Source: Hirschia sp. (lineage in GTDB: Bacteria > Pseudomonadota > Alphaproteobacteria > Caulobacterales > Hyphomonadaceae). From it: 64,000 bases of DNA. Below the pieces are notes generated by a model. The model was given only the letters and a program-made list of their open reading frames with translations, did not search any database and was not told where the DNA came from. Each line of letters begins with the position of its first letter. Position 1 is the stretch's first letter. The position numbers and the translations under genes were made by a program. The DNA lies in the NCBI GenBank assembly GCA_002709235.1, contig PAQI01000010.1, positions 200,278 to 264,277 of the forward strand, in the 5' to 3' direction. This document shows, in pieces, positions 9,841 to 64,000 of this stretch.

Positions 9841-9878
9841 GATCGTCTTAACTCCTGAGTTACCGCATTGCCCGCATT

Positions 9879-10378: not shown

Positions 10379-10445
10379 AATCATCGCAAAATGGCATTCC
10401 TTGCAGGAATCTGAATTCCCTTGATCTGCTCGTGGGAGGTGCGTC

Positions 10446-11840
10446 ATGAGCGAAGCGAACCCTGAACATGTCGAGCCGCCGGAAAATGAAGATGACAACA
10501 CTGTTGTCACCGAAGCGCGCATCGATGAATTCAGCGAAGCCGTAGAACATGACGCCCGTGACTATCTTGTCAGCGAAATGGCAGATATGCACCCGGCCGA
10601 TATTGCCGACGTCATGGAGCAGATGCCTCGCCATCTTGCCCTGGACATGGTGGAGCTGCTGGGTCAGTCGCTGTCCTATGAGGCGCTCACCGAGCTTGAT
10701 GTGGATCTTCGCACTGAAGCGCTTGAACGCCTTCCGGACAATGTGCTGGCTGAAGCCATTGAAGAGCTGGATTCTGACGACGCCGCAATCCTGGTCGATG
10801 ACCTTGAAGAAGACCGCCAACAGCGCATTCTGCGACAGGTCAATCCAAGTGACCGATCCGCAATCGAGACATCACTTCAGTTTGACGAAGAGACCGCCGG
10901 TCGTCTCATGCAGCGCGACTTCGTGGCTGCGCCTGAATTCTGGACTGTAGGTCAGGCGATAGATCACATGCGCGCGCAGGTTGGTAATCTGCCCGAGCCA
11001 TTCTTTGAAGTGTATCTGATCGATCCGGCATTTCATCTCATGGGTGTGGTCGTCCTGTCAGAGCTCATCTGCGCCAGTCGCGATACGCCTCTGATTGAGT
11101 TGAAGGAAGACCTGACGGCGATCGTGAAGCCTGACATGGATCAGGAGGAAGTCGCCTATATCTTCCAGCAATACAATCTGACCTCAGCGCCTGTGGTGGA
11201 TGAAGATAACAGGCTGACGGGCATGATCACCATCGATGACATGGTCGATGTGATTCAGAACGAAAACAAGGAAGACCTGCTGGCTCTGTCACAGGTGAAT
11301 GACGGGTCCGCCAGCCAATCTGTGTGGGATGCCTTCAAGTCTCGGGCACCATGGTTGGGCGTGAACCTCTTCACGGCTTTCCTGGCGTCGGGTGTGATTT
11401 CCCTGTTTGAAACGGCTTTGGACCAGATTGTAGCACTCGCCATGCTGATGCCGGTTGTGGCAGCATTGGGGGGTAACGCCGGGTCGCAGGCTTTGGCGGT
11501 GACTGTGAGGGCAATTGCCGAACGTGATATGATGGGCGCAATGGTGGCGCGTGCTGTCAGGCGGGAATTGTTCACGGCTGTCCTGAATGGTGCACTGTTT
11601 TCAGCTGGCGTGTCGATTATCGCATTCATCTGGTTTCGCGATCCGCGACTTGCCGGTGTCATTGGCGCGGCAATGTTCCTGACATTCATCTGGGCAGGCT
11701 TGTCAGGTGTACTGGTTCCCCTGACGCTGAGGCGACTGGGAGCTGACCCGGCTGTGGCGTCATCTGTGTTTGTGCTGACGACCGTGGATATCGTCGGATT
11801 CTGCGCATTTCTCGGGTTTGCCAGCATGGTGCTGCTCTAA
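10446..11840 (+). CDS. mgtE: Magnesium transporter MgtE
   Basis: The 464 aa protein has an MgtE N-domain, a CBS pair and a C-terminal 5-TM MgtE channel domain. Confidence 0.88.
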   Translation: MSEANPEHVEPPENEDDNTVVTEARIDEFSEAVEHDARDYLVSEMADMHPADIADVMEQMPRHLALDMVELLGQSLSYEALTELDVDLRTEALERLPDNVLAEAIEELDSDDAAILVDDLEEDRQQRILRQVNPSDRSAIETSLQFDEETAGRLMQRDFVAAPEFWTVGQAIDHMRAQVGNLPEPFFEVYLIDPAFHLMGVVVLSELICASRDTPLIELKEDLTAIVKPDMDQEEVAYIFQQYNLTSAPVVDEDNRLTGMITIDDMVDVIQNENKEDLLALSQVNDGSASQSVWDAFKSRAPWLGVNLFTAFLASGVISLFETALDQIVALAMLMPVVAALGGNAGSQALAVTVRAIAERDMMGAMVARAVRRELFTAVLNGALFSAGVSIIAFIWFRDPRLAGVIGAAMFLTFIWAGLSGVLVPLTLRRLGADPAVASSVFVLTTVDIVGFCAFLGFASMVLL

Positions 11841-44100: not shown

Positions 44101-44834
44101 ACGAGCGTGCCATTGACCAGGACGTTCAGCGTGCTTGCGCCATCGTTTTCGTCAAAGGCTGCAATGGTCAGTGTGTAGTCACCTGTTCCACCGCCAAATG
44201 TGTAGTTGAGCGTGCCGGAAGTGCCGCCACTGTTCAGCAGGGACGCAACCTCACCGCCTGATGCCAGGCCAGTTGCCTCGACGACAAAACCGTTGGCAAT
44301 GATGCTTTCCGCTTCAATGACGAGGGGCTCGGCTGAAGGTGTGGGGGTAGGCGTAGGAGCTGGTGTTGGGGTGACTTCACCCAGCGGTGAAAAGGTCAGC
44401 TTGTCGACGCGCGCCCATTCAGCAAGGTCTCTGGAACCGGTGATCGTGATCACGTCACCGAATTCAAGGTCCAGGTCGTTGAGTGTGTAGGAAATCAGGG
44501 ACGTTGCGGACACACCACCATCACCGGTGTTGGTGTTCATCACAACCGTGTCGATCAGTGTGCCATTGATACGCACTTCAAGAGGCGAGGCACCGTCGTT
44601 CTCGTCATAGACAAAAAGCTCCAGATCATAAGCACCGTCGCCACCTTCAAATGTGTAGGTGAGTGTTCCGGATGTCGGAGAGCCGTCGACTGAGCCATTG
44701 AACAGGGAGGCATAGGAGCCACCTGAGGCTGAGCCGTGGTCCGCGACCACATATCCATTTGTGATAATGTCTTCGGCTTCAATAGTAAGAACGCCGGTTG
44801 CTTCGTCAATTGAGCTTATTGTGCCGTCGGCCAT
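38118..44834 (-). CDS. Giant secreted repeat protein with novel beta-module repeats, cadherin-like/Ig domains, VCBS-like repeats and a shared C-terminal domain
   Basis: The 2238 aa protein has six ~145 aa modules of the form IEAEDxxxNGxVVE..ASGG..A.LxN...GTLxYTF.GG.G.YDL.L..FDE.DG.S.L.V.VNG.L....M......NAEWARVDKLTF. These are separated by PT linkers and about 9 ~90 aa domains of the form NTAPxGDIxDVxAxxGTPVxLDLSxLFTDADGDALTFS.SGxGAxIASLDGSTLTxDP..AG.F.LTVTANDG..DS.PV.F.V.A, typical of dystroglycan-type cadherin-like (putative Ig) domains. PVNDAP-type repeats follow, then a Ser-rich linker and a ~110 aa C-terminal domain. The ORF is continuous in the six-frame track, and its shadow ORFs on the + strand were rejected. 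Confidence 0.85.
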   Translation of the reverse strand: MADGTISSIDEATGVLTIEAEDIITNGYVVADHGSASGGSYASLFNGSVDGSPTSGTLTYTFEGGDGAYDLELFVYDENDGASPLEVRINGTLIDTVVMNTNTGDGGVSATSLISYTLNDLDLEFGDVITITGSRDLAEWARVDKLTFSPLGEVTPTPAPTPTPTPSAEPLVIEAESIIANGFVVEATGLASGGEVASLLNSGGTSGTLNYTFGGGTGDYTLTIAAFDENDGASTLNVLVNGTLVQTLTMDNATGSGALKASNLLDFTVTGLSLEAGDLVQIMATQNANEWVRIDTLTFTPEGDTTPAPTPTNTAPEGDIADVNAVVGTPVTLDLSTLFTDADDDALTFSISGPGASIASLDGSTLTLDASAAGSFDITVTANDGTVDSAPVTFTVSATAPTPTGESIVVEAEDLVLNGYVVETSGAASGGEYAGLFTGTVEGSPTTGTMTYTFTGGAGDYTLYLDVFDESDGNSTLEVRVNGVLIETVSMNTDTGSGVANAASLITYSVAGLSLESGDIVEITGNRDNAEWARVDKLTFTPEGDTTPAPTPTNTAPEGDIADVNAVVGTPVTLDLSTLFTDADDDALTFSISGPGASIASLDGSTLTVDAFAAGSYDITVTANDGTVDSAPVTFTVSATAPVAGGSTIVVEAEDIIANGFIVENSSPASDGQVASLLNSGNTSGTLAYTFAGGEGTYDLTIAAFDENDGASSFDVLVNGSLVQTITMNNSTNSGGMKASNLLDFTIAGLSLEAGDTIQIAATQNADEWVRIDTLTFTPIDGTPGPTNTAPTGDIADVDAVVGTPITIDLDAAFSDIDGDALTYTLSGAGAAAGSIDGSTLTIDPAAAGDFALTVTANDGTVDSAPVTFTVSATLPTPVGETFEVEAESIIAEGFIVENTGLASEGAVASLFNSGATEGTLAYTFAGGDAVYTLTLSAFDENDGAASIDIFVNDELVATIDMDGATSAGYMTSGTLKEFPIPGLELRTGDVIELVGTKNNNEEVRIDKLAFAQTGELTTPTPTPTGEPVVIEAEDLVLDGYVVETSAAASGGEYAGLFTGTVEGSPTTGTMMYTWAGDNGTFDLDLAVFDEADGQSPLEIRVDGVLVATIVMNTDTGSNAANAGSLMTYTVEGLEIENGDVIEITGARDNAEWARVDKLTFTPVGETTPPNTAPTGSIDDVTAELGTPVIIDLTTVFTDVDGDALTFSLSGAGAAIASIDGSTLTIDPFVEGNFELIVTANDGTADSAPVSFTVTAEEANIAPTGDIDDVNATIGTPVVLDLSTLFTDANGDALTFSVSGAGAAIASLDGSTLTLDPQTAGDFELTVTANDGEDDSDPVSFTVTAAPDNSAPTGDIDDVNATIGTPVVLDLLTLFTDADGDEMTFSLSGGGAAIASLDGSTLTIDPQAVGTYGLSVTANDGAVDSEPVIFNVTANFPNNAPETTLGDLTMDLGEPLVIDLNNFFSDADSDALTFSLGGADAAVATLDGATLTIDPANAGDFELTITATDGEDSVDADITVTTLPPNSAPQGYLFDFALDLNSEIAINLDSAFFDIDGDDLSFTLTAGQAALFTTLDGSTLTINPTDPDLWGEFDITITANDGEVDSTPVTFTLSIPDTNQGPTGTPTAVLTNGIEDTPTVVSEAQLLEGLTDPEGDAMQITSISSSNGGVVDNRNGSYTVVTTQNFTGALTLTYTVSDGKSGLLENVTQTLNITNVNDAPVIADLSGLDLTLDEDETVEATPAEIQAYLGALVADVDGDVVTVSLTFTYPVESGLAEEVIVVNPAEDFSWTPPQDYNGDITLTVLADDGELSTTKQATLTVLPVNDAPVVADLTGLILPTEEDTPVDATVAEINAYLDAYTSDVDGDEVNLTITLTYPEISGIADETIVVDRGQPLSWTPPADFTGPVAATLVFDDGAGEANSQVTQVVTIAVTPVNDAPTAVDDAFTVPGDGTTNAFNVLADNGNGVDFDIDGDAISVVAASGTTANGGSVTIDETGAISYTSAVGYYGEDTFTYTLTDGAETSTAVATFTVEPVDVLPIAVDDEFYLSAGGSVSGNVLADNGNGADFDPDGGTVTFLYPSQWVSEGTLTLSSNGDFTFTAPNYDFSANPITFQYVIQDDEGDTAEGTAVFFYEAPSSPASSAMSSIGPMARSSSADSSSSSDAGQQTGGPSDFLLDAAFGQRADVSSVQMITDLGQSFATGTVMPVFESDLQVLDALYGGDAGGMFAHTDDYFLTS

Positions 44835-45324
44835 GGTAGATCCCCACCCTAGGTAAGATACTGAACAATTGACGCCAAAATCTCATGTTAGGGAATTGTT
44901 TACTACCTGATTCAACTCGATGGTGTGCAAATAATATGTATTTCCGGTAATATACCTTTTGACGCGAATATTAGGCATATTGCTTAACCCTAACAGGGAA
45001 AATGAATGCCTGTTGGTTTATGAAAATATAATATAATTCAGTAATTTAGATGAAAATTTACTGCTAATTATTTGGAATGGGGGTGGTTATTGTTAATTCT
45101 CCATAAATGCGTTTAACGTCGATCAAATACTCCCGTCAGGTTGAGTTTATAACGTATAAATCTCCTGCTGAGTGAAGAGGCTTGTGCTCTTTACATTAAA
45201 GGTCTGGAGACAGTTTTCCATATGCGGGTTTGAGGGCGGAACTGGTCTGATCATTGCTAGATAGGACCGACAGGATGCAACCGTTTCGCCCCGTTGGGGA
45301 ATAAACACTCGCGTCCTCCGATTA
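44835..45324. promoter_or_regulatory. AT-rich divergent promoter/regulatory region between the two giant genes
   Basis: The 490 bp region is markedly AT-rich (about 35% GC vs about 58% in the window; eyeballed, not computed). It contains many A/T tracts and lies between divergently transcribed giant ORFs. Confidence 0.4.
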
Positions 45325-48300
45325 TTGAGCCATTGCGGTACGTGGAGGTACATTGGCATGAGTGAGATCGCTGATATCGGCACCGGGCTGACCGAGGTTG
45401 AGACGCTTACGCTCTCGGGAAGCTATGAAGTCGAGACAGTAACCGGGGCATCTGGTGGTGCCGTGGTGCAAACTCTCAGCGATGTGAGTGCAGGCCAGGC
45501 TATAGGTATCTTTAATGGTGCCGCAGGTACTTATGAGTTCACAATAAACTATATAGACGGCGCAAACGGTGCCTCTGATATTGTTGTGCTGGTCAATGGC
45601 GGCGCAGTTCACTCCTGGGCAGCCAATGGTACCGCAGGCGCAGCCAGCGAAGTTTTCCAGCTCGAATTGTCACCCGGCGACGAGATCTCGATCTCCGGTG
45701 TCAAGGATGGCGATGACCTGGCGCGTCTGGACTCGATCAACCTGTCTCCGGTTGGTACGATGACCGAGCCAGCGAGTTTCACAATCGAAGCCGAGGATAT
45801 TATCGGTGCCGGATATGTCGTGGAAACCTCCACCAAGGCATCAGGCGGAAAACTGGCATCGCTCTTTGACGGCTCGACAGCAAATTCTGCCACCTCCGGC
45901 ACGCTTAGCTACACATTCGACCAGACCGCAGGCATCTACGATCTTGATCTGACCGTTTTCGACGAGTCCGATGGCGCATCGACAATTGATGTGCGGGTCA
46001 ATGGCGAACTTATCACGACATTTACACTCGATGCACCGACCAGCTCGGCTGGTGTGTCGAACAACAGCAGACTTGTCTACTCCGCCGAAGGGTTGGAGCT
46101 GCAGGCAGGCGATTTGATCGAATTAACAGGCAATCAGGACAGTGGCGAATGGGCACGTATCGACAAGCTCGACTTCGTCGCCATTGAGGGAATCATGACC
46201 AGCGAACCGACAACAACAGAACTACCATCCAGCGAAACAGCATCAAGCGGTCCGACGCCGACCAGTAGCGCGCTGGCAGCAGGTGATCTGATCATCGGCC
46301 TGAATGAAGCCGAGGACATGCTCTTGTCCGGCGGTTACACGGTGGAAAACAGTGCGATCTATGCCAATGGGCAAGGCGTTCAAAATGCAGATGTCGGCCA
46401 GACCGTCGGCACCATTGAGGGCACTTTCACGGGCGCTGCCGGTGACTATGAACTGACGGTCGCATATTATGACGAAAGCGATGGAGAAGCTGACTACATC
46501 CTGCTGATCAATGGCTCTGCCGTTGACAGCTGGAGCGGTACTGGCGGCACGTCCATTGAAGGCGACAGGGTAGAACGCACGATTTCTGTCACGCTGACGG
46601 GCAATGACACCATTGAAATCGCAACCCACCGCAATGACAATGGCGAACTGGCACGCATCGACTCCATCGCAATCGAGTCTGCATCCACAACACCAACACC
46701 AACGCCGACTCCCACGCCTACGCCTACACCGACCCCAGCGCCTACACCGACAGGCGAACCGGTTGTTGTGCAGGCTGAAGACATCATCAGCGGCGCTGGT
46801 TATGTGGTTGAAACACACAATGCGGCTGCGGGTGGTGAATTTGCCTCGCTCTTCAACGGCACGGTCGCCAACTCGGCCAGTTCCGGCAAGTTGAGCCACA
46901 CCTGGACAGGTGACACCGGCACTTACGAACTCGTCCTGGATGTCTTTGATGAAGCCGACGGCAATTCCACATTGGAAGTCCGCGTGAATGGCGTCCTGAT
47001 CGACACGGTCACGATGGACACCAACACGAATGTGAACGGCTATAACGCCAACAACCTGATCTCCTACACGGTCGAGGGACTTTCGCTCACATCCGGTGAT
47101 GTTGTTGAAATCACAGGTAACCGCGAGAACGCCGAATGGGCGCGCGTGGACCAGTTGACATTCAACCCTGTCGACACCGGCACACCGACTCCCACGCCAA
47201 CCCCTACACCGACGCCAACGCCGACAAACACGCCGCCAGAAGGCGACATCAATGACGTCAACGCTGTTGTCGGTACACCGGTCACCATTGATCTGGACAG
47301 CCAGTTCAGCGATCTGGACGATGATGCACTGACATATGTCCTGTCCGGCTCCGGCGCATCTGTCGCAACCTTGAACGGCTCGACACTGACCATTGATCCT
47401 TCGGCAGCAGGCAATTACACGCTGACCATCACTGCCAATGACGGCACCGACGACAGCGCGCCTGTGACCTTTACAGTATCTGCGACGTCGCCCACGCCGA
47501 CCAGCGGCCCGATCATCCTCGAAGCAGAGGACATGATCTCCAATGGCTTCGTGATCGAGAACACATCAGTGGCCTCCGAAGGCCAGGTTGCATCCCTGCT
47601 GAATTCCGGTGGAACAACCGGAACGCTGTCTCACACCTTTGCAGGTAGCGCAGGCACCTATGACCTGACAGTGGCCGCATTTGATGAAAATGACGGCGCT
47701 GCAACAATCGATGTTCGTGTGAATGGCGTGCTGATCGACACCATTTCGATGGACAACAACACTTCCTCCGGTGGTCTGAAATCCTCCAACCTGCTCGACT
47801 TCACCGTTTCCGGCCTCGAACTTGAAGCAGGGGATGTTGTCGAGCTGATCGGACATCAAAACTCAGGCGAATGGGTGCGCATCGATACGGTCACGTTCGA
47901 AGGTGTCGCCGGTTCACCAACTCCGACACCGACACCCACGCCGACGCCAACGCCGACCCCCACACCGACGCCTCTTCCTGAGCCTTTCGAGGTTGAAGCA
48001 GAATCCATCATCTCCAGCGGTTTCATCGTGGAGAACACCGGTCTGGCATCAGATGGCAAGGTTGCGTCCCTGTACAATAGTGGCGCAACACAAGGCACGC
48101 TGGCTTACACATTTGCTGGTGGCGATGCCGTCTACACACTGACCCTTTCCGCCTTTGACGAGAATGATGGTGCAGCCACTATCGACATTCTGGTCAATGA
48201 CGAACTGGTCGCAACCGTCGACATGGATGGGGCAACGTCAGCTGGCTATATGACCAGCGGCACGCTCAAACAGTTCGAGATCCCAGGTCTGGAACTGCGC

Positions 48301-51081
48301 GCAGGTGACGTGGTTGAGCTCGTCGGTACCAAGGACAATTTCGAGGAGGTCCGCATCGACAAGCTGGCCTTCGCTCCTACCGGCGAACTGTCGACACCAA
48401 CTCCAACCCCCACGCCAACACCTACGCCGACTCCAACGCCAACCGGCGAGGCAATCTCGATCGAAGCTGAAGACATGGTGCTCAATGGCTATGTCATCGA
48501 AACCCATGCAGCAGCCTCGGGCGGCGAATATGCCGGCCTGTTCAATGGCTCGGTTGAAGGTTCGCCAACAACCGGAACCATGTCTTACACCTGGACGGGC
48601 GGAAATGGCACGTTCGACCTTGACCTTGCAGTCTTCGACGAAGCGGATGGTCAGTCTCCTCTGGAAATCCGCGTCGATGGTGTGCTTGTGGCAACGATCG
48701 TCATGAACGCCGACACGGGTTCCAACGCGGCCAGCGCAGCCAGCCTGATCACCTACACGGTGGAAGGCCTGGAGATCCAGAACGGCGACGTCATCGAGAT
48801 CACGGGTTCCCGTAACAACGCTGAATGGGCCCGCGTCGACAAGCTGACCTTCACACCGGTTGGCGAAACCACGCCGACACCAACCCCAACTCCCACCAAT
48901 ACACCTCCAGAAGGTGACATTGATGATGTGGATGCGGTTGTGGGCTCGCCGGTCGTGATCGATCTGGATGCTCAGTTCAGTGATCTGGACAATGATGACC
49001 TGACCTATTCGCTCTCCGGTTCAGGCGCATCCATTGCCACGCTGAACGGCTCCAATCTGACGCTTGATCCTTCGTCCGCGGGTACCTACACGATTACCAT
49101 CACGGCCAATGACGGTTCGGACAACAGTTCGCCCGTCACCTTCACGGTGAGCGCAACGGATCCTGTCGTGACGACCGGCCCGATCGTGCTGGAAGCCGAA
49201 GACATTATTGCTTCTGGTTTCATCGTGGAAAACTCGAACCCTGCATCGGGCAATCAAGTGGCCTCGCTGCTGAATTCCGGCGCAACCACAGGCACGCTCA
49301 GCTACACCTTCGCAGGTGCAGATGGCGATTATGACCTGACATTGGCGGCGTTCGATGAGAGCGATGGCAATTCTACAGTGTTGATCCGTGTGAACGGTTC
49401 TACCGCCGCGACCATCAACTTGGATGGAAACACCAGTTCCGGCGGCATGAGCTCTGGAAACCTGCTCGACTTCACGGTCTCCGGACTGGCGCTGTCGACG
49501 GGAGATCTCGTTGAAATCGTGGGTAGCCAGAACGCTGATGAGTGGGTGCGTCTCGACACCGTGACCTTCACACCTCTGGATACCACCCCAACACCAACTC
49601 CAACCCCGACGCCAACTCCCACACCGACGCCAACGCCGACCTCTTCAGTCGATATCGGGGTGGGAACAACGCAAGCGGAAGTGCTGGAATTGTCCGGTGG
49701 TTACCAGACAGAAAACAAGACCAATTACACAAATGGTGCAGGTATCCTGAACCTGGCCAATATTGGTGAAACGGCCACGGCTTCGGGTGCTTTTACGGGT
49801 AATTCAGGTGCCTATGACATCACCGTCACCTATCTGGATGAAAGCGACGGTGAGGCCAGCTGGTCATTGCTCGTCAACGGTGTTGCGGTGGATAGCTGGA
49901 ATGGTACAGGCGGCTCCAACGCCACCGGTACACCAACAGAACGCTCCATCCTTGTCGATCTGGACCCAGGCGATGTCGTGACCGTCAGCGGTACACGCAA
50001 CGACAATGGCGAAATGGCGCGCATCGACAAGATCAACATCCAGGCACAGCAAGTCCCTGGTCTGATCTCTACCGATGTCGACTACTTCGTCTTTGCCGGT
50101 CAATCGAATGCAGAACGCCACTTCTACCGTGCGAGCGGCGACAACAGCACGGGTGATCTGGGGGCTGATGTCTTCGAGCAGACCATCACAAACCTGACAG
50201 GCTACAACACAACTGCAATCGAAGCGGCCAAGGGTGGTTCCGGGTCGAACGAAAATGCAGACCCTGACAGCTATTGGTGGAACCTGGCCACGGACCAGCC
50301 AGGTCCTGAGCTGATCGCAGCGATCAACACGATCAATGCGACGCTCGGAGCCGGTAAGGATATCGATGGTATCATCTGGTCTCAGGGTGAAGATGATGCC
50401 CGCGCCATGACCAGCGCCAGCGGTAATGCCGAGCAGGTGATTGCGGACCTCAAGACAGCCACGACCAAGGTGTTTGAATATTTCTGGTCGATCTATGGCG
50501 AGGATGTTCCGATCTTCATCCAGGAAATCGGTGATTTCCCGGAAGGTTCAGGCTTCTATTCCGATGGTCCCGTCGGTGCCCTTGAACTGGTTCGGCAGGC
50601 CCAGCAGGAACTGATTGCAGAACTGGACAATGTCTATTTCGGTGCAAGCACTGACGGTGTTGAGCAGTTTGGTGACATTCACTTCTCCGTCGCCGGATAT
50701 GGCGATATCGCAGAAGATCTCGCTGACTCTGTTGTCGACTACCTCACGCCGGGTTCCTCCACCTCGTCCATGCAGTCATTTGCAAGAGTGGCAGAACCCA
50801 CGTCAGAGAGCGCCGAGCAATCAGAATCGACGTCATCTTCTGATGGTGGACATGGTGAGTTTGCCTATATGGGAGGGGCCGGAACCGATGGGTTCCTGCT
50901 GACCAACACCAATGCGTTCGACACGCTTCCGGTATTCGTGCCGAAGACTCAGGTCGCTGAATCGCCCGATCTGGGCGGTGGGGGCGCAATGACGTTCACG
51001 CCGATGGCTGACATTTTCAGCGCAGAAGGCATGGATTTCGATCTGGGTGGAAGCCAGAACGACGACTGGTACATCATCTGA
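45325..51081 (+). CDS. Giant secreted repeat protein with novel beta-module repeats, cadherin-like domains and a C-terminal SASA/DUF303-type SGNH carbohydrate esterase domain
   Basis: The 1918 aa protein may start at ATG 45358 (MSEIADIG). It is built from two module types (an A-type like gene 1 and a B-type, LSGGYxxEN...G.FTG..G.YD.TV.Y.DESDGE....L.NG.AVDSW.GTGG...ARID.I.I) plus cadherin-like domains and PT linkers. The C-terminus (about 50050-50760) carries the GQSN, IIWSQGEDDA and DIHFS motifs of a sialate-O-acetylesterase-like SGNH hydrolase. After that comes a Ser-rich linker and a ~100 aa terminal domain homologous to that of gene 1. Confidence 0.85.
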   Translation: MSHCGTWRYIGMSEIADIGTGLTEVETLTLSGSYEVETVTGASGGAVVQTLSDVSAGQAIGIFNGAAGTYEFTINYIDGANGASDIVVLVNGGAVHSWAANGTAGAASEVFQLELSPGDEISISGVKDGDDLARLDSINLSPVGTMTEPASFTIEAEDIIGAGYVVETSTKASGGKLASLFDGSTANSATSGTLSYTFDQTAGIYDLDLTVFDESDGASTIDVRVNGELITTFTLDAPTSSAGVSNNSRLVYSAEGLELQAGDLIELTGNQDSGEWARIDKLDFVAIEGIMTSEPTTTELPSSETASSGPTPTSSALAAGDLIIGLNEAEDMLLSGGYTVENSAIYANGQGVQNADVGQTVGTIEGTFTGAAGDYELTVAYYDESDGEADYILLINGSAVDSWSGTGGTSIEGDRVERTISVTLTGNDTIEIATHRNDNGELARIDSIAIESASTTPTPTPTPTPTPTPTPAPTPTGEPVVVQAEDIISGAGYVVETHNAAAGGEFASLFNGTVANSASSGKLSHTWTGDTGTYELVLDVFDEADGNSTLEVRVNGVLIDTVTMDTNTNVNGYNANNLISYTVEGLSLTSGDVVEITGNRENAEWARVDQLTFNPVDTGTPTPTPTPTPTPTPTNTPPEGDINDVNAVVGTPVTIDLDSQFSDLDDDALTYVLSGSGASVATLNGSTLTIDPSAAGNYTLTITANDGTDDSAPVTFTVSATSPTPTSGPIILEAEDMISNGFVIENTSVASEGQVASLLNSGGTTGTLSHTFAGSAGTYDLTVAAFDENDGAATIDVRVNGVLIDTISMDNNTSSGGLKSSNLLDFTVSGLELEAGDVVELIGHQNSGEWVRIDTVTFEGVAGSPTPTPTPTPTPTPTPTPTPLPEPFEVEAESIISSGFIVENTGLASDGKVASLYNSGATQGTLAYTFAGGDAVYTLTLSAFDENDGAATIDILVNDELVATVDMDGATSAGYMTSGTLKQFEIPGLELRAGDVVELVGTKDNFEEVRIDKLAFAPTGELSTPTPTPTPTPTPTPTPTGEAISIEAEDMVLNGYVIETHAAASGGEYAGLFNGSVEGSPTTGTMSYTWTGGNGTFDLDLAVFDEADGQSPLEIRVDGVLVATIVMNADTGSNAASAASLITYTVEGLEIQNGDVIEITGSRNNAEWARVDKLTFTPVGETTPTPTPTPTNTPPEGDIDDVDAVVGSPVVIDLDAQFSDLDNDDLTYSLSGSGASIATLNGSNLTLDPSSAGTYTITITANDGSDNSSPVTFTVSATDPVVTTGPIVLEAEDIIASGFIVENSNPASGNQVASLLNSGATTGTLSYTFAGADGDYDLTLAAFDESDGNSTVLIRVNGSTAATINLDGNTSSGGMSSGNLLDFTVSGLALSTGDLVEIVGSQNADEWVRLDTVTFTPLDTTPTPTPTPTPTPTPTPTPTSSVDIGVGTTQAEVLELSGGYQTENKTNYTNGAGILNLANIGETATASGAFTGNSGAYDITVTYLDESDGEASWSLLVNGVAVDSWNGTGGSNATGTPTERSILVDLDPGDVVTVSGTRNDNGEMARIDKINIQAQQVPGLISTDVDYFVFAGQSNAERHFYRASGDNSTGDLGADVFEQTITNLTGYNTTAIEAAKGGSGSNENADPDSYWWNLATDQPGPELIAAINTINATLGAGKDIDGIIWSQGEDDARAMTSASGNAEQVIADLKTATTKVFEYFWSIYGEDVPIFIQEIGDFPEGSGFYSDGPVGALELVRQAQQELIAELDNVYFGASTDGVEQFGDIHFSVAGYGDIAEDLADSVVDYLTPGSSTSSMQSFARVAEPTSESAEQSESTSSSDGGHGEFAYMGGAGTDGFLLTNTNAFDTLPVFVPKTQVAESPDLGGGGAMTFTPMADIFSAEGMDFDLGGSQNDDWYII
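46687..46752 (+). repeat. Pro-Thr linker-encoding microsatellite-like tract (ACNCCN)n
   Basis: The tract acaccaacaccaacgccgactcccacgcctacgcctacaccgaccccagcgcctacaccgaca encodes TPTPTPTPTPTPTPAPTPT. Similar tracts occur at about 47170-47225, 47918-47973, 48395-48445, 48870-48900 and 49590-49645, and in gene 1 (for example 44290-44350). Confidence 0.8.
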
Positions 51082-59816: not shown

Positions 59817-60393
59817 GGCATTCGTCTGGATGATGAAATTTGAAGCAGTTAACAGTAAACACTTCGAAAATTACAAATTGGATGGTTTTGCTGCAGACCT
59901 TGTTAACCAAAATCAATCTTGAGACACAGTCAGTTAGGTGGCTTGCAATAATCGTCTATGAATCAAGGCGAGCCGAGGAATGCATGGCCATATATGCTCG
60001 AGCATACCACCAGAAAATGCCATTTAGTGAGCTATATTAATTATTGGTAGTGTTGCTGTTCCCGCGCCATTCTCGCTCTGATCATCGGGATTGATCGGCT
60101 TGTAACGCGCCTGAATGTTCTGGAATGGCACGCTTGGTTCCTCAATGCGTCCCGTTTTTCCTGAATACGGCAATAGCGAAATCGCCTTAGCCGCTAGTCT
60201 CTCGAAAAATTCTCGCCTTCTGCAAGTAAAAGCGCCGGTTCTATTTGACTTCAATAAAAATTTCTCGATGGGCATCGGAATTGCTGGATCCTGAAAGGAC
60301 AGATGTCTTCAGGTCAGCCCTTTGGGAGCTTCTGCAGGACTAGGACGAATAATGTGTGACGGGATCGCGCAATTGGACCTGAGGGATTGAGAC

Positions 60394-62367
60394 ATGAAAT
60401 ATCGGCCCGATATCGACGGGTTGCGGACAGTCGCGGTTGTCCCGGTCGTACTTTTTCACGTCGGTCTGGGGATGACTGGGGGCTTTGTCGGGGTCGACAT
60501 CTTCTTCGTGATTTCCGGTTTCCTGATCACTGCCATCACATGGGGTGAGATCAATGAAGACCGCTATTCCATCATAAATTTCTACGAGCGCCGCGTGCGC
60601 CGGATCTTTCCGGCCCTGTTTGCCATGATGGCCGTCACGGCGATCGTCGCCACCGCCATGTTGCTCCCGCATCATCTGGAAAGTTTCGGCAAGAGCGCGT
60701 TCGCGGCCACAGCCTTCTTCTCGAATTTGTGGTTCTATTCAACAACCGGATATTTCGCCGTCGAAGCCGAGATGCAACCCCTGCTGCACACCTGGTCACT
60801 GGCAGTGGAAGAGCAGTATTACATTGTTTTCCCGATCCTGCTCTGGGTGCTCTACAAGCTGATGCGCCCCGCAGCATTGTTCGCCGTGCTGGCAATCCTG
60901 TATGGCGTTTCCTTCTACTTTGCCCAGCGGGCCTTGATTCTGGACCCTGAAGCCGCATTCTACCTTCCGCATTTTCGCGCCTGGGAACTATTGGCGGGCT
61001 CGATGCTGGCGATCGCCATGCGTCAGGGTTGGCTCGATGCAATCTTGAAGAATTCGCTCGTCGCACATCTTCTTGGCCTGGGCGGAATGGCGGCAATCAT
61101 CTGGTCGATCTTCTGGTTCGGCGTTGAGACACCCTTTCCGGGCACGGCTGCGCTTGCACCCGTTCTGGGGACCGTAGCCATCATTGCAGCGGGAACCTAT
61201 CGCAAGAACCCGGTCAGAACGGCACTCAGCCTTCCGCCAATGGTGTTCGTCGGCAAGCTGTCCTATTCCTTCTATCTCTGGCACTGGCCGGTAATCGTGT
61301 TTGCACATTACGCACATGTCGAACCGCTGACCCTGCCGCTCAAGCTGGCCTGTGTAGGGACAGCCTTCCTATTGGCCTATATATCACTGATCTTTGTCGA
61401 GCAGCCTTTCCGCGACAAGCGCCGTATCGGCCGCACACCCATCTTCGCATCAGGCGCAGCCGCAATGGCAGTCATTTGTGGTGTTGGCGTGGGACTGGGC
61501 AAGACCGATGGCATGCCCGAGCGCGTACCGGGAGAATTTCTGGCCCTGATCGACAAGGAAAGCAAATATTACGCATTGCGCAATGCGTGCCATTTCATAA
61601 CACCCGAACGCGCCATCCGTAAGGATCTGTGTATTCGCGGCGCAGAAGGCGTCGACCCCAGCTTCATCCTGGTCGGAGACAGTCACGCAGATGCGCTGAG
61701 CCCTGCCATCTTCACGGCGGCAGAAGAACTCAACCTCTCAGGCTATCAATACACCAATTCCGGTTTCCGGCCCTTGCTCGGCGTGGAAAAACAGGGCGAC
61801 CCGGACTGGGGCGCACAGGCGAGGGCGCTGGTCATCTTCCTTGAGGCGCATCCATCCGTGGAGACTGTCTACCTCACGGGGTTCTGGGAATATCAGGCGA
61901 CCGGCTATTCATTCCGCGGCGGCGGCCACACTTTCCGCGATGAACATTATGACGGCACGCGGACCCGCTATAATGCTACAGCCATGAAGAACGGACTGTC
62001 GCGATTGGCCCAGACCTTCCCGGATCGTCGCTTCATCATTCTTGACGATGTGCCATCAGGTCATGAGATGGACCCGGAAAGGCATGTCAGGAACGCCATG
62101 TTCTCCAGCGACAAGCACTATCTGGACGCCGGAATCCACCGCGATGATGCAGAGCGCCAGCGCGCCAAATACGAGCCGATCCTCGTGGATCTGGCGCACA
62201 GGCATGACAATCTGGAATACAGACCCGTCCTGGCCGCGCATTGCATAGAGGACCATTGCCCGCTCTTCGACAATGGCAAGGCCCTCTACCGCGACGGCGA
62301 CCACCTCAGCGAAGACGGCGCCCTGCGCCTCACCCCCATCATCCGCGAACACGTCCTGATCAATTAA
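60394..62367 (+). CDS. Acyltransferase-3 family membrane O-acyltransferase with C-terminal SGNH domain (OafA/OatA-like)
   Basis: The N-terminus DIDGLRTVAVVPVVLFHVGLGMTGGFVGVDIFFVISGFLIT is a canonical AT3 motif. About 10 TM helices are followed by a ~270 aa C-terminal SGNH-like periplasmic domain. Confidence 0.85.
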   Translation: MKYRPDIDGLRTVAVVPVVLFHVGLGMTGGFVGVDIFFVISGFLITAITWGEINEDRYSIINFYERRVRRIFPALFAMMAVTAIVATAMLLPHHLESFGKSAFAATAFFSNLWFYSTTGYFAVEAEMQPLLHTWSLAVEEQYYIVFPILLWVLYKLMRPAALFAVLAILYGVSFYFAQRALILDPEAAFYLPHFRAWELLAGSMLAIAMRQGWLDAILKNSLVAHLLGLGGMAAIIWSIFWFGVETPFPGTAALAPVLGTVAIIAAGTYRKNPVRTALSLPPMVFVGKLSYSFYLWHWPVIVFAHYAHVEPLTLPLKLACVGTAFLLAYISLIFVEQPFRDKRRIGRTPIFASGAAAMAVICGVGVGLGKTDGMPERVPGEFLALIDKESKYYALRNACHFITPERAIRKDLCIRGAEGVDPSFILVGDSHADALSPAIFTAAEELNLSGYQYTNSGFRPLLGVEKQGDPDWGAQARALVIFLEAHPSVETVYLTGFWEYQATGYSFRGGGHTFRDEHYDGTRTRYNATAMKNGLSRLAQTFPDRRFIILDDVPSGHEMDPERHVRNAMFSSDKHYLDAGIHRDDAERQRAKYEPILVDLAHRHDNLEYRPVLAAHCIEDHCPLFDNGKALYRDGDHLSEDGALRLTPIIREHVLIN

Positions 62368-62489
62368 GGGCGGGGGTGGGGCCGTCCCGCCTTTCAAACT
62401 TATCCGCCTCCCAAGCGAAAGCTGGGGTCCAGATAAAACGCCAAATGCCAGTCACGGTGGTTTTCGCTTTTCGTGCAAAAAGAGGTGCA

Positions 62490-62523
62490 GTAGGGCGGGT
62501 TGAGCGTTAGCGATACCCGCCAT
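62490..62523 (+). repeat. REP element (gtagggcgggttgagcgNNcgcgatacccgccat family), forward copy
   Basis: The sequence gtagggcgggttgagcgttagcgatacccgccat has a GTAG head and an imperfect palindrome. Copies recur at 63140-63172 (inverted), 63753-63786 (forward) and 63804-63838 (inverted variant). A related variant lies at 63088-63126. Confidence 0.75.
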
Positions 62524-62554
62524 AATCTTTCCGCGTGGTGAGTGGGGGGATACA

Positions 62555-63076
62555 ATGCCTAAATATCGACGCCTATATATTCCCCGCGGAACGTTTTTCT
62601 TCACTCTGAACTTGCAGAACCGCAGGAGCCGTTTGCTCGTCGATCGCATCGCGGATCTGCGGGCTTCATGGAATCACGTTCAACATTCCAGACCTTTTCA
62701 GACCATCGCGGCAGTGGTCCTGCCCAACCATCTGCATGTTGTCCTCACATTGCCCGACGGCGATGGCGACTATTCCACGCGCGTTCGTCTCCTCAAGACG
62801 GGTTTTACGCGCCGATTGCCGACTGCTTTCAAGTCAAACGACCGTAAGGGCCAGCGGGGAATCTGGCAAAAGCGCTATTGGGAGCACGCCGTTCGCGACG
62901 ATACTGATATGGGCGCATATGTCGATTATATCCACTTCAACCCGGTGAAGCATGGACTCGTCGCCAGCCCGGATGACTGGCCCTATTCAACATGGCACCG
63001 CTGGAAGCAGGAGGTTGCAAAGCCATACGTTGTTCCGGCAGATTGGAAGCCACCGCCAGAGATCGAAGATGAGTAG
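62555..63076 (+). CDS. REP-associated tyrosine transposase (IS200/IS605 Y1 TnpA-like)
   Basis: The 173 aa protein has an HuH motif (LPNHLHVVL) and a catalytic Tyr region (YVDYIHFNPVKHGLV), both typical of REP-associated transposases. Confidence 0.78.
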   Translation: MPKYRRLYIPRGTFFFTLNLQNRRSRLLVDRIADLRASWNHVQHSRPFQTIAAVVLPNHLHVVLTLPDGDGDYSTRVRLLKTGFTRRLPTAFKSNDRKGQRGIWQKRYWEHAVRDDTDMGAYVDYIHFNPVKHGLVASPDDWPYSTWHRWKQEVAKPYVVPADWKPPPEIEDE

Positions 63077-63087
63077 GCCGGTTCAAT

Positions 63088-63172
63088 GTAGGGCGGGTCG
63101 AGGCAAAGCCGACCCCCGCCATGGCGCAGGCGGCAAGACGGCGGGTATCGCTAGCGCTCAACCCGCCCTACG
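63088..63172. repeat. REP doublet (forward variant + inverted copy)
   Basis: The forward variant tgtagggcgggtcgaggcaaagccgacccccgccatggcg is followed by ggcgggtatcgctagcgctcaacccgccctac, which is the reverse complement of the REP consensus. Confidence 0.7.
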
Positions 63173-63199
63173 GTGCTACCAAATCTAAAGGGGCGGATT

Positions 63200-63739
63200 A
63201 TGCAAGCGACGGTGAAACAAATAAAATGTCTGGCAATGATGATGGTGGCTTCTTGTGCCGCAAATCAAGTTGCAGTGGAAGATAGCCCATATATAGTATC
63301 CGTTTCACACTCACGCTATAGAGATTTTGGATTTGTGGAGGCTTGCTCGTTGGGGGCAAATAAAAGCAATTCGGCATGTTTTAGAATTGAATCAAATATT
63401 ATTGACAAGGGTAACGGTGATTACCTTAGTTATTTGAGTAGGGTTGAATTATATTTCCAGAATTCAGATATCAGGAAGATCTGGAAATTCAGTTCGGATG
63501 CTTTCAACTATCCGATATTGAGTGAGGCCAGCATCAAAACAAGTTGGGAATATGATCGTACCCCCGCTGTAGGTGATCATATCGAGGTTCGGGTTCCCTA
63601 TGATTTTGTGAATATGAGAACTGCTTGCAATATCGAAGGTTATGATGATGTCATGCACTATTCAAATATCGTAAGTTTTGTACTGCGTTATAGCTCGACC
63701 TCTGAATTTGATATCGAGGCTGCGGAATGTTTGAAGTAG
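63200..63739 (+). CDS. Hypothetical secreted protein encoded in low-GC insert bracketed by REP doublets
   Basis: The 179 aa protein starts at ATG 63200, with an RBS-like aaagggg upstream. It has a signal peptide (MQATVKQIKCLAMMMVASCAANQ). GC is about 40%, versus about 58% in the flanks. The codon usage is AT-rich and atypical. Confidence 0.45.
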   Translation: MQATVKQIKCLAMMMVASCAANQVAVEDSPYIVSVSHSRYRDFGFVEACSLGANKSNSACFRIESNIIDKGNGDYLSYLSRVELYFQNSDIRKIWKFSSDAFNYPILSEASIKTSWEYDRTPAVGDHIEVRVPYDFVNMRTACNIEGYDDVMHYSNIVSFVLRYSSTSEFDIEAAECLK

Positions 63740-63752
63740 TTGTGTGAGTCCC

Positions 63753-63838
63753 GTAGGGCGGGTTGAGCGAACGCGATACCCGCCATTTCGCCACCCGCAC
63801 CACGACGGGTATCAGCCTTCGGCTTCAACCCGCCCTAC
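63753..63838. repeat. REP doublet (forward copy + inverted variant)
   Basis: The forward copy gtagggcgggttgagcgaacgcgatacccgccat is followed by a spacer. The inverted variant is gacgggtatcagccttcggcttcaacccgccctac. Confidence 0.7.
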
Positions 63839-63920
63839 ATTCGCTTGCGCTGGCAATGCGCGAAACTAACCGCCAGATAACCCTTCCAACCGTTCCCGTT
63901 TCACCCCATATTCACCGCCA

Positions 63921-64000
63921 TGAGCAAATCAACCAAATCTCGTGGTGTCTCAGAGGCACCTGGCGCGGCCTTCATTCCGGCAGGCGAGGCCCAGCATCCT
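63921..64000 (+). CDS. 5' end of an unidentified CDS (partial)
   Basis: An ATG at 63921 opens a frame (MSKSTKSRGVSEAPGAAFIPAGEAQHP) that runs off the window. The product is unknown. Confidence 0.25.

Follow-up and report, generated by a model that had tools for sequence, protein, structure and literature searches.

A REPtron and a predicted foreign lipoprotein gene in a gene-turnover hotspot at uvrB in a marine Hirschia sp.

The locus and its parts

The window analysed here is a 64-kb stretch of DNA (64,000 nucleotides) from a marine 'Hirschia sp.' (Hyphomonadaceae). Close to its right end lies a REPtron, that is, an HUH-Y1 RAYT gene together with its cognate GTAG-footed REP hairpins. Read from left to right, the locus comprises REP1, the RAYT gene, doublet A (REP2 and REP3), an open reading frame referred to below as ORF179, doublet B (REP4 and REP5), uvrB, and doublet C. 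These parts and the DNA to their left are listed here by window position, strand and identity, doublet C being placed on contig L002.

59817..60393, no strand: intergenic stretch of low GC (0.42-0.48 in the composition profile), where alignable homology to the intergenic region of L222 fades
60394..62367, + strand: AT3 + SGNH acyltransferase gene, 657 aa, native-like GC of 0.577 (Pfam Acyl_transf_3 7e-26, SGNH 8e-43)
62490..62523, + strand: REP1, the 5' REP of the REPtron, with GTAG foot, GAGCG-loop type
62555..63076, + strand: RAYT (TnpA-REP), HUH-Y1 REP-associated tyrosine transposase, 173 aa
63088..63122, + strand: REP2, outer half of doublet A, GCC-loop variant
63138..63171, - strand: REP3, inner half of doublet A, the canonical 3' REP(-) of the RAYT, foot toward ORF179
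63200..63739, + strand: ORF179, compositionally foreign, near-orphan, predicted lipoprotein gene
63753..63786, + strand: REP4, inner half of doublet B, orthologous in three species
63802..63838, - strand: REP5, outer half of doublet B, GCC-loop variant
63920..64000, + strand: uvrB, 5' end; core gene and anchor of the hotspot, identified by gene calls and Pfam in L001-L007
L002 9505-9594, past the window end: doublet C, third and decaying, after the uvrB stop codon

By synteny comparison, the low-GC intergenic stretch is the left edge of a block of about 4.1 kb that is missing in two related loci, L222 and L223. The acyltransferase gene belongs to this extra block and does not lie between the 549/528-aa gene and uvrB in either of them. 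The 'Hirschia sp.' itself is cosmopolitan and marine and is absent from JGI metagenomes; the closest relative of its UvrB is P0131 (98%).

The RAYT and its REP hairpins

A preliminary description of this DNA had named the 173-aa protein a HuH-Tyr transposase of the REP-associated type, and the searches bear this out. The protein scores 175.5 bits against NCBIfam NF047646 (REP_Tyr_transpos, cutoff 80), matches PDB 4ER8 (TnpArep) with an E value of 2.1e-39, and reaches only 16.9 bits against the IS200 model NF033573, below the cutoff of 55. Its catalytic motifs, H59-L-H61 and Y125-I-H-F-N-P-V-K-H-G, the latter in the RAYT-specific context of the catalytic Tyr (Y..H.NPV.HG), align to 4ER8 and fall in columns that are invariant or nearly so among 28 aligned sequences. 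With a GC3 z score of 0.05 relative to the window genes, the RAYT is native-like in composition, and its genomic context is the same in 23 out of 23 contigs that carry it (contigs, not complete genomes).

The 16-mer GTAGGGCGGGTTGAGC, with up to three mismatches allowed, finds five matches in the 64 kb, all at the REP/RAYT locus; shuffles give an expectation of 0.45, and five were reached in 0 of 100. The remaining ~62 kb of the window hold no REP, a family-agnostic caller found no other real family of GTAG-footed hairpin repeats in the 64-kb window, and one further doublet (C) lies just beyond uvrB. Among the matches listed from genome contigs, the exact REP pattern occurs in at least 119 stretches from many phyla.

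All five REPs previously described around the RAYT are present, and each can be folded into a hairpin whose 5' foot is GTAG. Their orientation is not strictly alternating, as had been stated, but +,+,-,+,-, and they do not share the single 34-nt consensus once proposed, because the GCC-loop variants REP2 and REP5 lie outside it. Doublets A and B each form one long hairpin (-27.6 and -29.5 kcal/mol, z -3.7 and -6.7) and are inverted copies of one another (alignment score 45 inverted versus 30 direct), a symmetry that reaches into their flanks, with AATG|TAGGG outside and CCG|TAGGG inside. The RAYT is flanked by REPs in the manner of a REPtron: REP1(+) lies 32 nt 5' of its start, REP3(-) lies 62-95 nt downstream, and REP2(+) sits between. 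In most of the 80 RAYT loci surveyed below, this position of REP1 is the canonical one and the layout of REPs around the RAYT recurs. The same type of REP is found in several genera of Hyphomonadaceae and Parvularculaceae, in relatives also far from any RAYT, and doublet A is 84-89% identical to the REPINs of two related loci, L220 and L221.

ORF179, a predicted lipoprotein gene of foreign composition

The stretch from doublet to doublet (63172-63752) comprises 581 nt with a GC content of 0.41, and a low-GC ORF is indeed tightly flanked by the two, as the preliminary description had it. ORF179 encodes 179 aa from an ATG with a Shine-Dalgarno site, or 188 aa from an upstream GTG. Its GC (0.402) and GC3 (0.394) were compared with those of 31 window genes (GC 0.558 +/- 0.018, GC3 0.618 +/- 0.041), giving z scores of -8.9 and -5.5, and a CAI-like index places it at z = -2.7. 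Measured against the window genes, ORF179 is therefore atypical at synonymous sites as well.

The protein begins with lysines K6 and K9, a hydrophobic stretch and a lipobox, V16-A-S-C19, as defined by the pattern [LVI][ASTVI][GAS]C after an N-terminal signal peptide. The lipobox Cys is invariant in the aligned homologs, P0123 and P0124 having the lipobox-like NGSC and IGAC. Because the lipobox is conserved in homologs, the product is a predicted lipoprotein, a refinement of the earlier view that it is simply secreted. Four further Cys besides Cys19 are conserved, and the mature part is under purifying selection among the homologs; the conserved lipobox and Cys pattern, together with this selection, indicate that ORF179 belongs to a real gene family. 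An AF2 model is predicted to be beta-rich (pTM 0.61) and has no fold match, and searches of Pfam, NCBIfam, PADLOC, and plasmid and phage collections returned no domain or element match.

The family is extremely sparse and patchy. Among 5.8e9 proteins I found only the cluster identical to ORF179, and among 1.84e9 representatives three weak relatives. The DNA around the homologs is free of REPs, and in one case it is a REP-free low-GC island of lipoprotein genes; one member is native at 66% GC in a high-GC genome, and the family is AT-rich also in a second genome of ~55% GC. With a leader of 28 nt and no predicted promoter of its own, ORF179 probably depends for its expression on read-through from the RAYT gene.

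Within the population there is little variation on which to draw. Sixteen aligned contigs are 99.8-99.9% identical, all 16 carry ORF179 with no allele lacking it, and the gene shows 0 SNPs across them, so the population data are uninformative on selection. The context is the same in 14/14 contigs that carry ORF179. The NCBI MAG contig L004 seems to carry an insertion of 171 bp at doublet B, but this consists of Ns that stand for an assembly gap at the repeat.

A hotspot of gene turnover at uvrB

The hotspot has conserved flanks that run from PAS-GGDEF-EAL through uvrB to a 65-aa gene, rnd and aspS, and the accessory or defence genes between them differ species by species. L222 and L223 are empty sites, in which the 549/528-aa gene is followed directly by uvrB with no acyltransferase, RAYT or ORF179, and L225 has a different arrangement at uvrB. 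ORF179 is absent from 5/5 related uvrB loci and is not conserved in synteny. The proposal that the low-GC segment was acquired horizontally thus stands on its foreign synonymous-site composition (GC3 z -5.5), its absence at the corresponding place in L222 and L223, and the different genes found in its stead in L220 and L221. By these sequence comparisons, ORF179 is a near-orphan, predicted lipoprotein gene of horizontal origin.

Doublet B of the window species has aligning orthologs in L220 and L221, placed likewise at the corresponding site 5' of uvrB, and from doublet B through uvrB the window and L220 form one contiguous BLAST alignment of 82%. Its outer half, REP5, is degenerate in L220 and deleted in L221. 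The low-GC neighbour of doublet B is different each time: ORF179 in the window, and a GNAT gene and ORF155 in the other two species (L220 and L221). Since doublet B is ancestral at its position, it did not arrive with ORF179; doublet A I take only as the other boundary of the slot. An accessory gene upstream of uvrB is present only in these three REPIN-bearing species. The hotspot houses one or two RAYTs, and among the relatives the position of the RAYT is not conserved. The three species are each other's closest relatives and hence are not independent cases.

The hotspot exists also without REPs. Directly after uvrB, relatives that lack REPs carry a STAND-like gene (GC 0.42), an OLD nuclease (0.41) or a 269-aa ORF (0.36), low-GC genes gained beside the same core gene. 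Moreover, uvrB itself is bracketed by doublets B and C just as ORF179 is by A and B. The suggestion that the REP/RAYT system mobilised ORF179 as cargo is not upheld by these observations, nor by the finding that ORF179 and its DNA occur at this locus only and that its homologs are REP-free.

REPs and foreign genes at other loci

A survey of 80 unrelated RAYT loci, with small sample sizes and thresholds set post hoc, points to some relation between REPs and low-GC DNA. Low-GC windows occur just 3' of the RAYT (+100-500 nt) in 6/65 cases, compared with 4 of 280 distant windows (p = 0.004), and in 0/173 from +1100 nt onward; the enrichment is short-range and confined to the downstream side. A downstream distal REP, as called by a stringent hairpin caller, has a low-GC neighbour in 4/7 versus 5/36 cases (p = 0.026). 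A seed-only caller (12-mer, two mismatches, no hairpin needed) proved noisy, misclassified L174 and L204, gave p = 0.44, and was rejected. REPs of the present type that lie far from RAYTs adjoin low-GC DNA at about 3x background (p = 0.014), examples being Hyphococcus and Marinicaulis, in which the REPIN is on one side only.

The order RAYT, REP(-), foreign ORF, REP(+) is found at five loci (the window, L107, L174, L204 and L220), the foreign ORF coming directly after the 3' REP. Across RAYT loci the cargos are unrelated single genes, including one for a type IV restriction enzyme and a CdiI-like gene, which rules out a common cargo family, and their orientation relative to the RAYT is mixed (four on the + strand, four on the - strand). 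The bracketed cargos have no junction motif in common beyond the REPIN unit itself, which in three related species extends ~8 nt past the foot. At L221, L097 and L132 foreign genes lie beside a REPIN with no RAYT nearby. Since REPs in Pseudomonas avoid DNA of atypical composition (PMC3390384), one would not by default expect them to enclose a 40%-GC gene so closely. Mere coincidence of REPs and foreign DNA does not account well for the survey enrichments or for the pattern upstream of uvrB.

How ORF179 may have reached its place

What explanation covers both the REPs around ORF179 and the turnover at uvrB without them? The reading I favour, with moderate confidence, is an ordinary REPtron in a uvrB gene-turnover hotspot, where ORF179 arrived by generic recombination and not by transposition of a REP-cargo-REP unit. 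The RAYT would be a domesticated, single-copy HUH-Y1 transposase at a fixed locus (single-copy being read from the one context in 23 contigs), at which REP doublets are present in every intergenic gap of the short stretch, in keeping with the known habit of REPs to pile up beside their own rayt gene. ORF179 would then have landed beside the older doublet B, in a slot with doublet A on its far side, through illegitimate or short-homology recombination. The REPs look like old landmarks of the hotspot and not like the vehicle that brought ORF179 in; as long-lived landmarks they are probably also recombination-prone slot edges, so that the doublets mark, and may favour, breakpoints. They may double as RNA hairpins that insulate or stabilise flanking transcripts. 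Recombination at or near REPs may have facilitated gene entry, given that the neighbours of doublet B differ and that the architecture recurs at unrelated RAYTs.

A stronger role for the REPs, which I regard as possible but on balance doubtful, is REPIN-guided cassette replacement, in which the doublets are crossover points and incoming DNA swaps what lies between or beside them, by way of an ~85-bp conserved sequence common to genera of Hyphomonadaceae and Parvularculaceae or of hairpin-induced breaks. In its favour, the orthologous doublet B has three different low-GC neighbours, and the right breakpoint of ORF179 lies no more than 13 nt from the foot of REP4. About 45 nt at the doublet B breakpoint are common to L220 and L221 and missing in the window, and L221 has an array of REPIN, ~360 nt of low GC, REPIN, low-GC ORF155 and REP. 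Further points on this side are that the REPINs are 84-89% identical in species whose uvrB DNA is 81-82% identical, and that the REP type is spread over several genera, together with the three survey associations (p = 0.004, 0.026 and 0.014, the last with Hyphococcus and Marinicaulis). However, REP homology would be of no help in a first capture from a REP-less low-GC donor, no cassette turned up a second time, and in Hyphococcus and Marinicaulis the REPIN is one-sided. The same turnover proceeds downstream of uvrB in REP-less relatives, and the associations come from small samples with post hoc thresholds and, at uvrB, from three closest relatives.

More generally, REP clusters, chiefly on the 3' side of the RAYT, might be preferred landing or exchange sites for single foreign genes, integron-like slots served by RAYT strand transfer or by REPIN-guided recombination. 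I consider this unlikely. If true, gene acquisition would be among the tasks of the domesticated RAYT/REPIN system, and the change of low-GC gene beside an orthologous REPIN across three species would be explained. RAYT/REPIN systems are commonly seen as vertically inherited, self-contained replicators and REPs as marks of old, stable DNA; REP clusters that mark or promote foreign-gene breakpoints would be a new class of flexible-genome micro-hotspot, the genes concerned here being those for lipoproteins, restriction enzymes and immunity proteins. What domesticated RAYTs do has long been asked, and gene entry would offer a testable angle. If REPs and foreign genes merely share permissive DNA, both the REPtron and the horizontally acquired orphan gene beside it are ordinary, and the main gain is the extension of RAYT/REP systems to marine Hyphomonadaceae.

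Capture catalysed by the RAYT itself I hold to be improbable. The HUH enzyme would cut ssDNA at a CT near the REP foot of its own 3' cluster, and a foreign 3'-OH ssDNA end would resolve the phosphotyrosine intermediate, so that a foreign gene is stitched into an integron-like slot. E. coli TnpA-REP does perform CT cleavage and strand transfer, and a monomer could take any 3'-OH ssDNA (PMC3479197; PMC3333891). The five loci with cargo directly after the 3' REP, the short-range, downstream-only enrichment and the unrelated single-gene cargos are consistent with such a reaction. But heterologous capture would need two joining events, cargo orientation is mixed (4 + and 4 -), no junction motif is conserved beyond the REPIN unit, and the RAYT-free surroundings of the foreign genes in L221, L097 and L132 are at odds with it. 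The feet-inward geometry of the REPs is expected from any split of an alternating cluster, and is therefore no independent evidence for capture.

It is very improbable that ORF179 is an old native gene, made odd in composition by its amino acids or by a local mutational bias, around which REPINs inserted. The lack of polymorphism in the population and an AT-rich family member in a second genome of ~55% GC would suit this; yet synonymous sites are atypical too (GC3 0.39 versus 0.62 +/- 0.04), none of the five related uvrB loci has the gene, and a sparse, patchy family with one member native at 66% GC has the pattern of a horizontally moving gene.

That REPIN-ORF179-REPIN is a composite mobile element, with the doublets as terminal repeats and the adjacent RAYT acting in trans, is hardly credible: the doublets are inverted copies with symmetry into their flanks, but the unit is single-copy in the same context in 14 ORF179 and 23 RAYT contigs, has neither a second site or genome nor an exact empty-site allele among the 16 aligned contigs, shows no visible target-site signature, and has as relatives only three distant, REP-free homologs among 5.8e9 and 1.84e9 proteins, while REPtrons as units are not known to move (PMC3333891).

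Comparison with known systems

The E. coli K-12 REPtron (tnpA-REP/yafM, BIMEs, 4ER8) belongs to the same HUH-Y1 family (E 2e-39) and is alike in its 5' GTAG foot and imperfect palindrome, in its flanks, with a REP/BIME 5' of the gene and a variable cluster of REPs 3' of it, and probably also in being a single-copy gene at a fixed locus that is itself replaceable. It is not mobile as a unit, and B1 strains have hicAB in its stead (PMC3333891). The present locus differs in that its 3' REP cluster is split by a foreign protein-coding gene and that its host is an alphaproteobacterium; whereas E. coli has ~400-600 dispersed REPs, here they occur only at the locus within 64 kb.

The REPIN-RAYT systems of Pseudomonas fluorescens and P. 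chlororaphis (Bertels & Rainey) likewise have inverted doublets of ~85-95 bp that fold as long hairpins and a RAYT flanked by cognate REPs. Across Pseudomonas species REPINs stay in orthologous places, as doublet B does here (bioRxiv 10.1101/2021.07.10.451892). REPs mark old regions there and DNA of atypical composition lies in REP deserts (PMC3390384), whereas in the window and several relatives REPINs adjoin low-GC genes and the position of the RAYT is not conserved. A gathering of REPs near rayt instead of genome-wide is known from some marine bacteria (Nunvar et al. 2010, on gammaproteobacteria and Thauera; PMC2817692). The RAYT first noticed in that study stood one gene away from a horizontally transferred one, REPs lying between the neighbouring genes; in contrast to the present locus, no foreign ORF precisely bracketed inside a REP cluster is described there (PMC2817692). 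The tnpA-REP genes spread as accessory genes do (PMC6006769), and the study of Touzain et al. 2010 (PMC2884548) is about generic repeats, not REPs.

Elements of the IS200/IS605 group (e.g. IS608, with tnpA and tnpB) share the Y1 HUH transposase, subterminal hairpins, a 5' guide tetranucleotide, ssDNA chemistry and a gene beside tnpA between hairpins. Here the passenger is a lipoprotein gene, not tnpB, with no sign of movement as a unit, and an IS200/IS605 element with a passenger gene was rejected on the IS200 model score (16.9 < 55 bits), the single context in all contigs and the ancestral doublet B. Integron cassettes offer an analogy: a short, apparently promoterless, single ORF of odd composition between ssDNA-folding imperfect palindromes, an adjoining gene for a recombinase that would act on ssDNA hairpins, and, in L221, an array-like arrangement. 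The likeness is structural; unlike systems with IntI, attI, and attC with R/L core boxes, cargo orientation is mixed, no cassette occurs twice, and the genes examined around the locus include no integrase.

The 'minimal mobile elements' of Neisseria are gene-turnover hotspots between conserved core genes. Hotspots of that type resemble the uvrB region in their conserved flanks and in the different accessory or defence genes found in each species; what sets the present one apart is that in three species its slots are delimited by REPINs and that it holds one or two RAYTs.

The transposase, its REPs and the gene between them

The transposase gene, the REP hairpins and the bracketed open reading frame that the preliminary description had placed in this region are all present; the strict alternation of REP orientation that it described is not borne out, the order being +,+,-,+,-.

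Features of the locus (window position, strand, element)
62490, +, REP1, GAGCG...GCGATA loop region
62555-63076, +, RAYT (REP-associated tyrosine transposase), 173 aa, NCBIfam NF047646 and 4ER8 matches
63088, +, REP2, GCC-type loop
63171, -, REP3, GAGCG...GCGATA loop region
Inter-foot segment, 581 nt between REP feet, GC 0.41
63200-63739, +, ORF179, 179-aa lipoprotein ORF, GC 0.402, GC3 0.394
63753, +, REP4, GAGCG...GCGATA loop region
63838, -, REP5, GCC-type loop

The RAYT scores 175.5 bits against the NCBIfam model NF047646, 'REP-associated tyrosine transposase' (cutoff 80), and just 16.9 bits against an IS200 model (below the cutoff of 55). Its residues 1-164 match the crystal structure of E. 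coli TnpA-REP (4ER8, E 2e-39), and the H59-L-H61 and Y125 motifs are both retained. Its GC3 is in line with the genes of the window (z 0.05), and among its thousands of homologs the nearest outside its own cluster, labelled 'Hirschia sp.' by NCBI, is about 66% identical.

Each of the five REPs is an imperfect palindrome, GGCGGGT...ACCCGCC, with a GTAG foot at its 5' side. The REP 16-mer, with up to three mismatches, has five matches in the 64 kb, all at this locus (0.45 expected by chance; five reached in 0 of 100 shuffles), and a family-agnostic caller for GTAG-footed hairpins revealed no further true repeat family in these 64 kb. Single REPs fold into hairpins, and doublets A (REP2 and REP3) and B (REP4 and REP5) form long ones of -27.6 and -29.5 kcal/mol (z -3.7 and -6.7). 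The doublets are mutually inverted copies (alignment score 45 inverted versus 30 direct) with their GAGCG-type REPs towards ORF179, and the symmetry continues into the flanks; this feet-inward geometry is not independent evidence, because any split of an alternating REP cluster yields the same. Multi-copy REPs with the foot and stem start GTAGGGCGGGTYGA...CCCGYC occur in unrelated phyla (L018-L136, among the matches listed), for example at at least 8 sites in a Planctomycetota MAG and in several Dokdonella and Gemmataceae MAGs; this head is either widely shared or was reached repeatedly by different RAYT lineages.

Within the species, TARA and other marine metagenomes and one NCBI MAG carry RAYT on 23 contigs and ORF179 on 14, all in a single gene order: acyltransferase, RAYT, ORF179, uvrB. 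The 16 aligned contigs are 99.8-99.9% identical, with no SNP in ORF179 and no ORF179-less allele among them. An apparent insertion in the MAG contig (L004) was rejected as an N-gap at a REP: the N run, at 7207-7377, lies exactly within doublet B, which indicates that the repeat breaks short-read assemblies. The same cause probably explains why many ORF179-carrying contigs are only 1-1.6 kb long.

Compared with 31 window genes (GC 0.558 +/- 0.018, GC3 0.618 +/- 0.041), ORF179 is atypical in GC (z -8.9), GC3 (z -5.5) and a CAI-like index (z -2.7), and since synonymous sites are affected, amino-acid content alone is insufficient to explain its composition. Both a Shine-Dalgarno site and a lipobox (VASC, Cys19) are present in it. 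Among 5.8e9 proteins, a word-indexed search found no relatives beyond its own cluster, and an exhaustive HMMER search of 1.84e9 representatives found two full-length relatives, P0123 and P0124, at 23-24% identity. All three share the lipobox Cys, four further invariant Cys and several motifs, and two diverged copies of P0123 are separated by 14 replacements, of which the signal peptide accounts for 11 and the mature protein for only 3, with about nine synonymous changes. Together these patterns indicate that ORF179 truly belongs to a very sparse family of lipoproteins. It had no match in Pfam, NCBIfam, PADLOC or plasmid and phage sets, and its best AF2 model (pTM 0.61, beta-rich) gave no convincing fold match. 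The family homologs at L137 111-656 and L139 8001-8546 are about 98% identical in the mature protein, but 11 of their first 19 residues differ, as if the signal peptide or 5' end had been swapped; the latter has several other small lipoprotein genes around it in a 35%-GC island. P0128, 92% identical to P0123, is encoded on an alphaproteobacterial contig of about 55% GC, within a REP-free island of 35% GC that holds several small lipoprotein genes, and the P0124 gene has native GC (66% on a 65%-GC contig); thus, the family moves or persists without REPs.

Neither a promoter nor a terminator is predicted near ORF179, whose 28-nt leader includes about 8 nt of the REPIN (REP doublet) unit, so that read-through from RAYT is its likeliest route of expression. 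An Rfam search of the locus gave no family matches.

Turnover around uvrB

Relatives at graded distances were picked via their UvrB homologs. L222 and L223 (UvrB 85% and 81% at the amino-acid level) keep the window's upstream genes, namely PAS-GGDEF-EAL, a ~257-aa gene and a ~530-550-aa gene, the last directly before uvrB; acyltransferase, RAYT, ORF179 and REPs are all absent. The window therefore has about 4.1 kb extra (59817-63900), and the differing GC of the three genes in this block (0.58, 0.55 and 0.40) implies more than one event. At its left edge lies a 577-nt low-GC (0.42-0.48) non-coding stretch (59817-60393), flanked by a divergent 551-aa gene and the AT3-SGNH acyltransferase, in which no ORF, REP or RNA family was detected. 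L225 (80%) has PAS-GGDEF-EAL immediately upstream of uvrB.

In L221 (87%), the slot just upstream of uvrB holds a different low-GC lipoprotein ORF (ORF155, 155 aa, GC 0.42), flanked by a REPIN 88-89% identical to doublet A and by a REP orthologous to REP4. The array at 4000-11700 runs REPIN, IS3 transposase, REPIN, a ~360-nt low-GC stretch with a small membrane-protein-like ORF, REPIN, ORF155, REP, uvrB, two REPINs and a low-GC patatin gene, with no RAYT within 16 kb. L220 (92%) has a degenerate but contiguous doublet B ortholog upstream of uvrB, with a low-GC GNAT gene directly against it. Downstream of uvrB (8752-10114) it carries a different RAYT lineage, 59% identical to that of the window and flanked by its own short-hairpin REP type (GTAGGGCGGGCCTCGGCCCGCC), then an a/b-type REPIN 84% identical to doublet A, a lower-GC CdiI-like immunity gene and a degenerate REP; two RAYT/REP families thus share one hotspot. 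In an alignment of the window, L220 and L221, the position of REP4 is identical in the three species, and about 45 nt upstream of it, common to L220 and L221, are missing from the window, where the ORF179 stop codon lies 13 nt from the REP4 foot. Doublet B therefore predates the gene now beside it.

On the 3' side of uvrB, four relatives (L222 9479-11101; L223 8285-10551; L221 9817-11616; L225 8444-11429) each have a different low-GC gene of accessory or defence type, the kinds being a STAND-like NTPase, an OLD-family nuclease with a small partner, a patatin and unknown ORFs. With a conserved 65-aa gene, rnd and aspS as its boundary, this flank resembles a defence-island hotspot. In the window's own species, a low-GC patch (0.32-0.47) downstream of uvrB (L002 11000-11700) lies beside a GIY-YIG gene and contains a 75-aa ORF; its surroundings are free of REPs.

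Did the REPs capture ORF179?

The proposal that REPs captured or mobilised this gene is undercut from two sides. A third, decaying doublet C lies right past the uvrB stop in the window's species (L002 9505-9594), so that a core gene is bracketed exactly like ORF179, and the three REP-less relatives each have a low-GC gene directly after uvrB (STAND-like NTPase, GC 0.42; OLD-family nuclease, 0.41; 269-aa ORF, 0.36), so that the hotspot exists without REPs. REPINs simply occupy each of the intergenic gaps near RAYT; some marine bacteria have the same REP build-up near rayt (Nunvar et al., PMC2817692). On balance I lean towards an ordinary REPtron (a RAYT with its cognate REPs) in a gene-turnover hotspot flanking uvrB. 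REPINs, locally amplified and partly ancient, would fill gaps near the RAYT; ORF179, an orphan lipoprotein gene gained by horizontal transfer, would occupy one slot; and the REPs would be landmarks, perhaps fragile edges, rather than vehicles.

A survey of 80 RAYT loci (46-55% identity, JGI metagenomes), using a caller that demands GTAG foot, hairpin and recurrence inside the locus, gave a canonical layout of REP(+) ~25-30 nt upstream of RAYT and REP(-) ~45-55 nt downstream. Among 21 inter-REP gaps without RAYT, dGC is -0.116 or lower in four and within +/-0.05 in the other 17. The four (this window, L107, L174 and L204) all lie immediately downstream of RAYT with one ORF each. With low GC defined as a 400-nt window of dGC <= -0.10 relative to RAYT, and this locus left out, low-GC windows downstream number 6/65 at +100-500 nt, 2/50 at +600-1000 and 0/173 from +1100 on; the adjacent bin differs from distant windows on both sides (4/280; Fisher p = 0.004). 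Upstream the count is 4/63 and the decay flatter. A downstream low-GC neighbour accompanies 4/7 loci with a distal REP versus 5/36 without (p = 0.026), an association not found upstream. Across at least 119 listed REP-centred genome loci, nearly all RAYT-less, 3.7% of REP-adjacent and 1.1% of distant windows are low in GC (~3-fold, p = 0.014), where REP-adjacent windows also contain more intergenic DNA. Thresholds were set after the data were seen, samples are small, and L177 and L181 are probably one species. The cargos of different RAYT loci show no relatedness and are typical flexible-genome genes: a MrcB_N+HNH type IV restriction enzyme, a DUF2247 protein, lipoproteins and membrane proteins. 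The single-gene restriction enzyme (L204 5580-6658; GC 0.45 versus 0.61) is precisely bracketed by REPs directly 3' of an unrelated RAYT on a JGI metagenome contig, a layout repeated in L174 (182-aa membrane protein) and L107 (252-aa membrane protein). In Hyphococcus luteus and Marinicaulis, one low-GC ORF abuts a REPIN on a single side.

These associations keep a link between REPs and foreign genes alive, and they make two more specific alternatives worth testing. REPIN-guided cassette replacement is possible, if clearly less probable than an ordinary REPtron in a hotspot. RAYT-catalysed capture is improbable, if chemically conceivable: TnpA-REP cuts ssDNA at CT dinucleotides that flank a REP on one side or the other, requires the GTAG foot and performs strand transfer, and for the monomer resolution by any 3'-OH ssDNA is possible in principle (PMC3479197; PMC3333891). 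A native origin of ORF179 is disfavoured as very improbable, and a mobile REPIN-ORF-REPIN unit is more doubtful still.

The literature searched contains no description of passenger ORFs inside REPtrons. The nearest precedents are a RAYT discovered at one gene's distance from a gene acquired by horizontal transfer (Nunvar; PMC2817692) and hicAB in place of the REPtron in some E. coli strains (PMC3333891). Pseudomonas shows the opposite tendency, REP deserts holding the atypical DNA (Loper et al., PMC3390384).

Elsewhere in the window, 38118-51081 encodes two giant, divergent, highly repetitive surface-type proteins (2238 aa, -; 1918 aa, +) with matches to Big_9/PKD, SH3-like and SASA esterase domains, and with PT-rich linkers. 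The lowest GC of the window (44526-45479, minimum 0.396) falls in the divergent region between these genes and reaches into their 5' ends.
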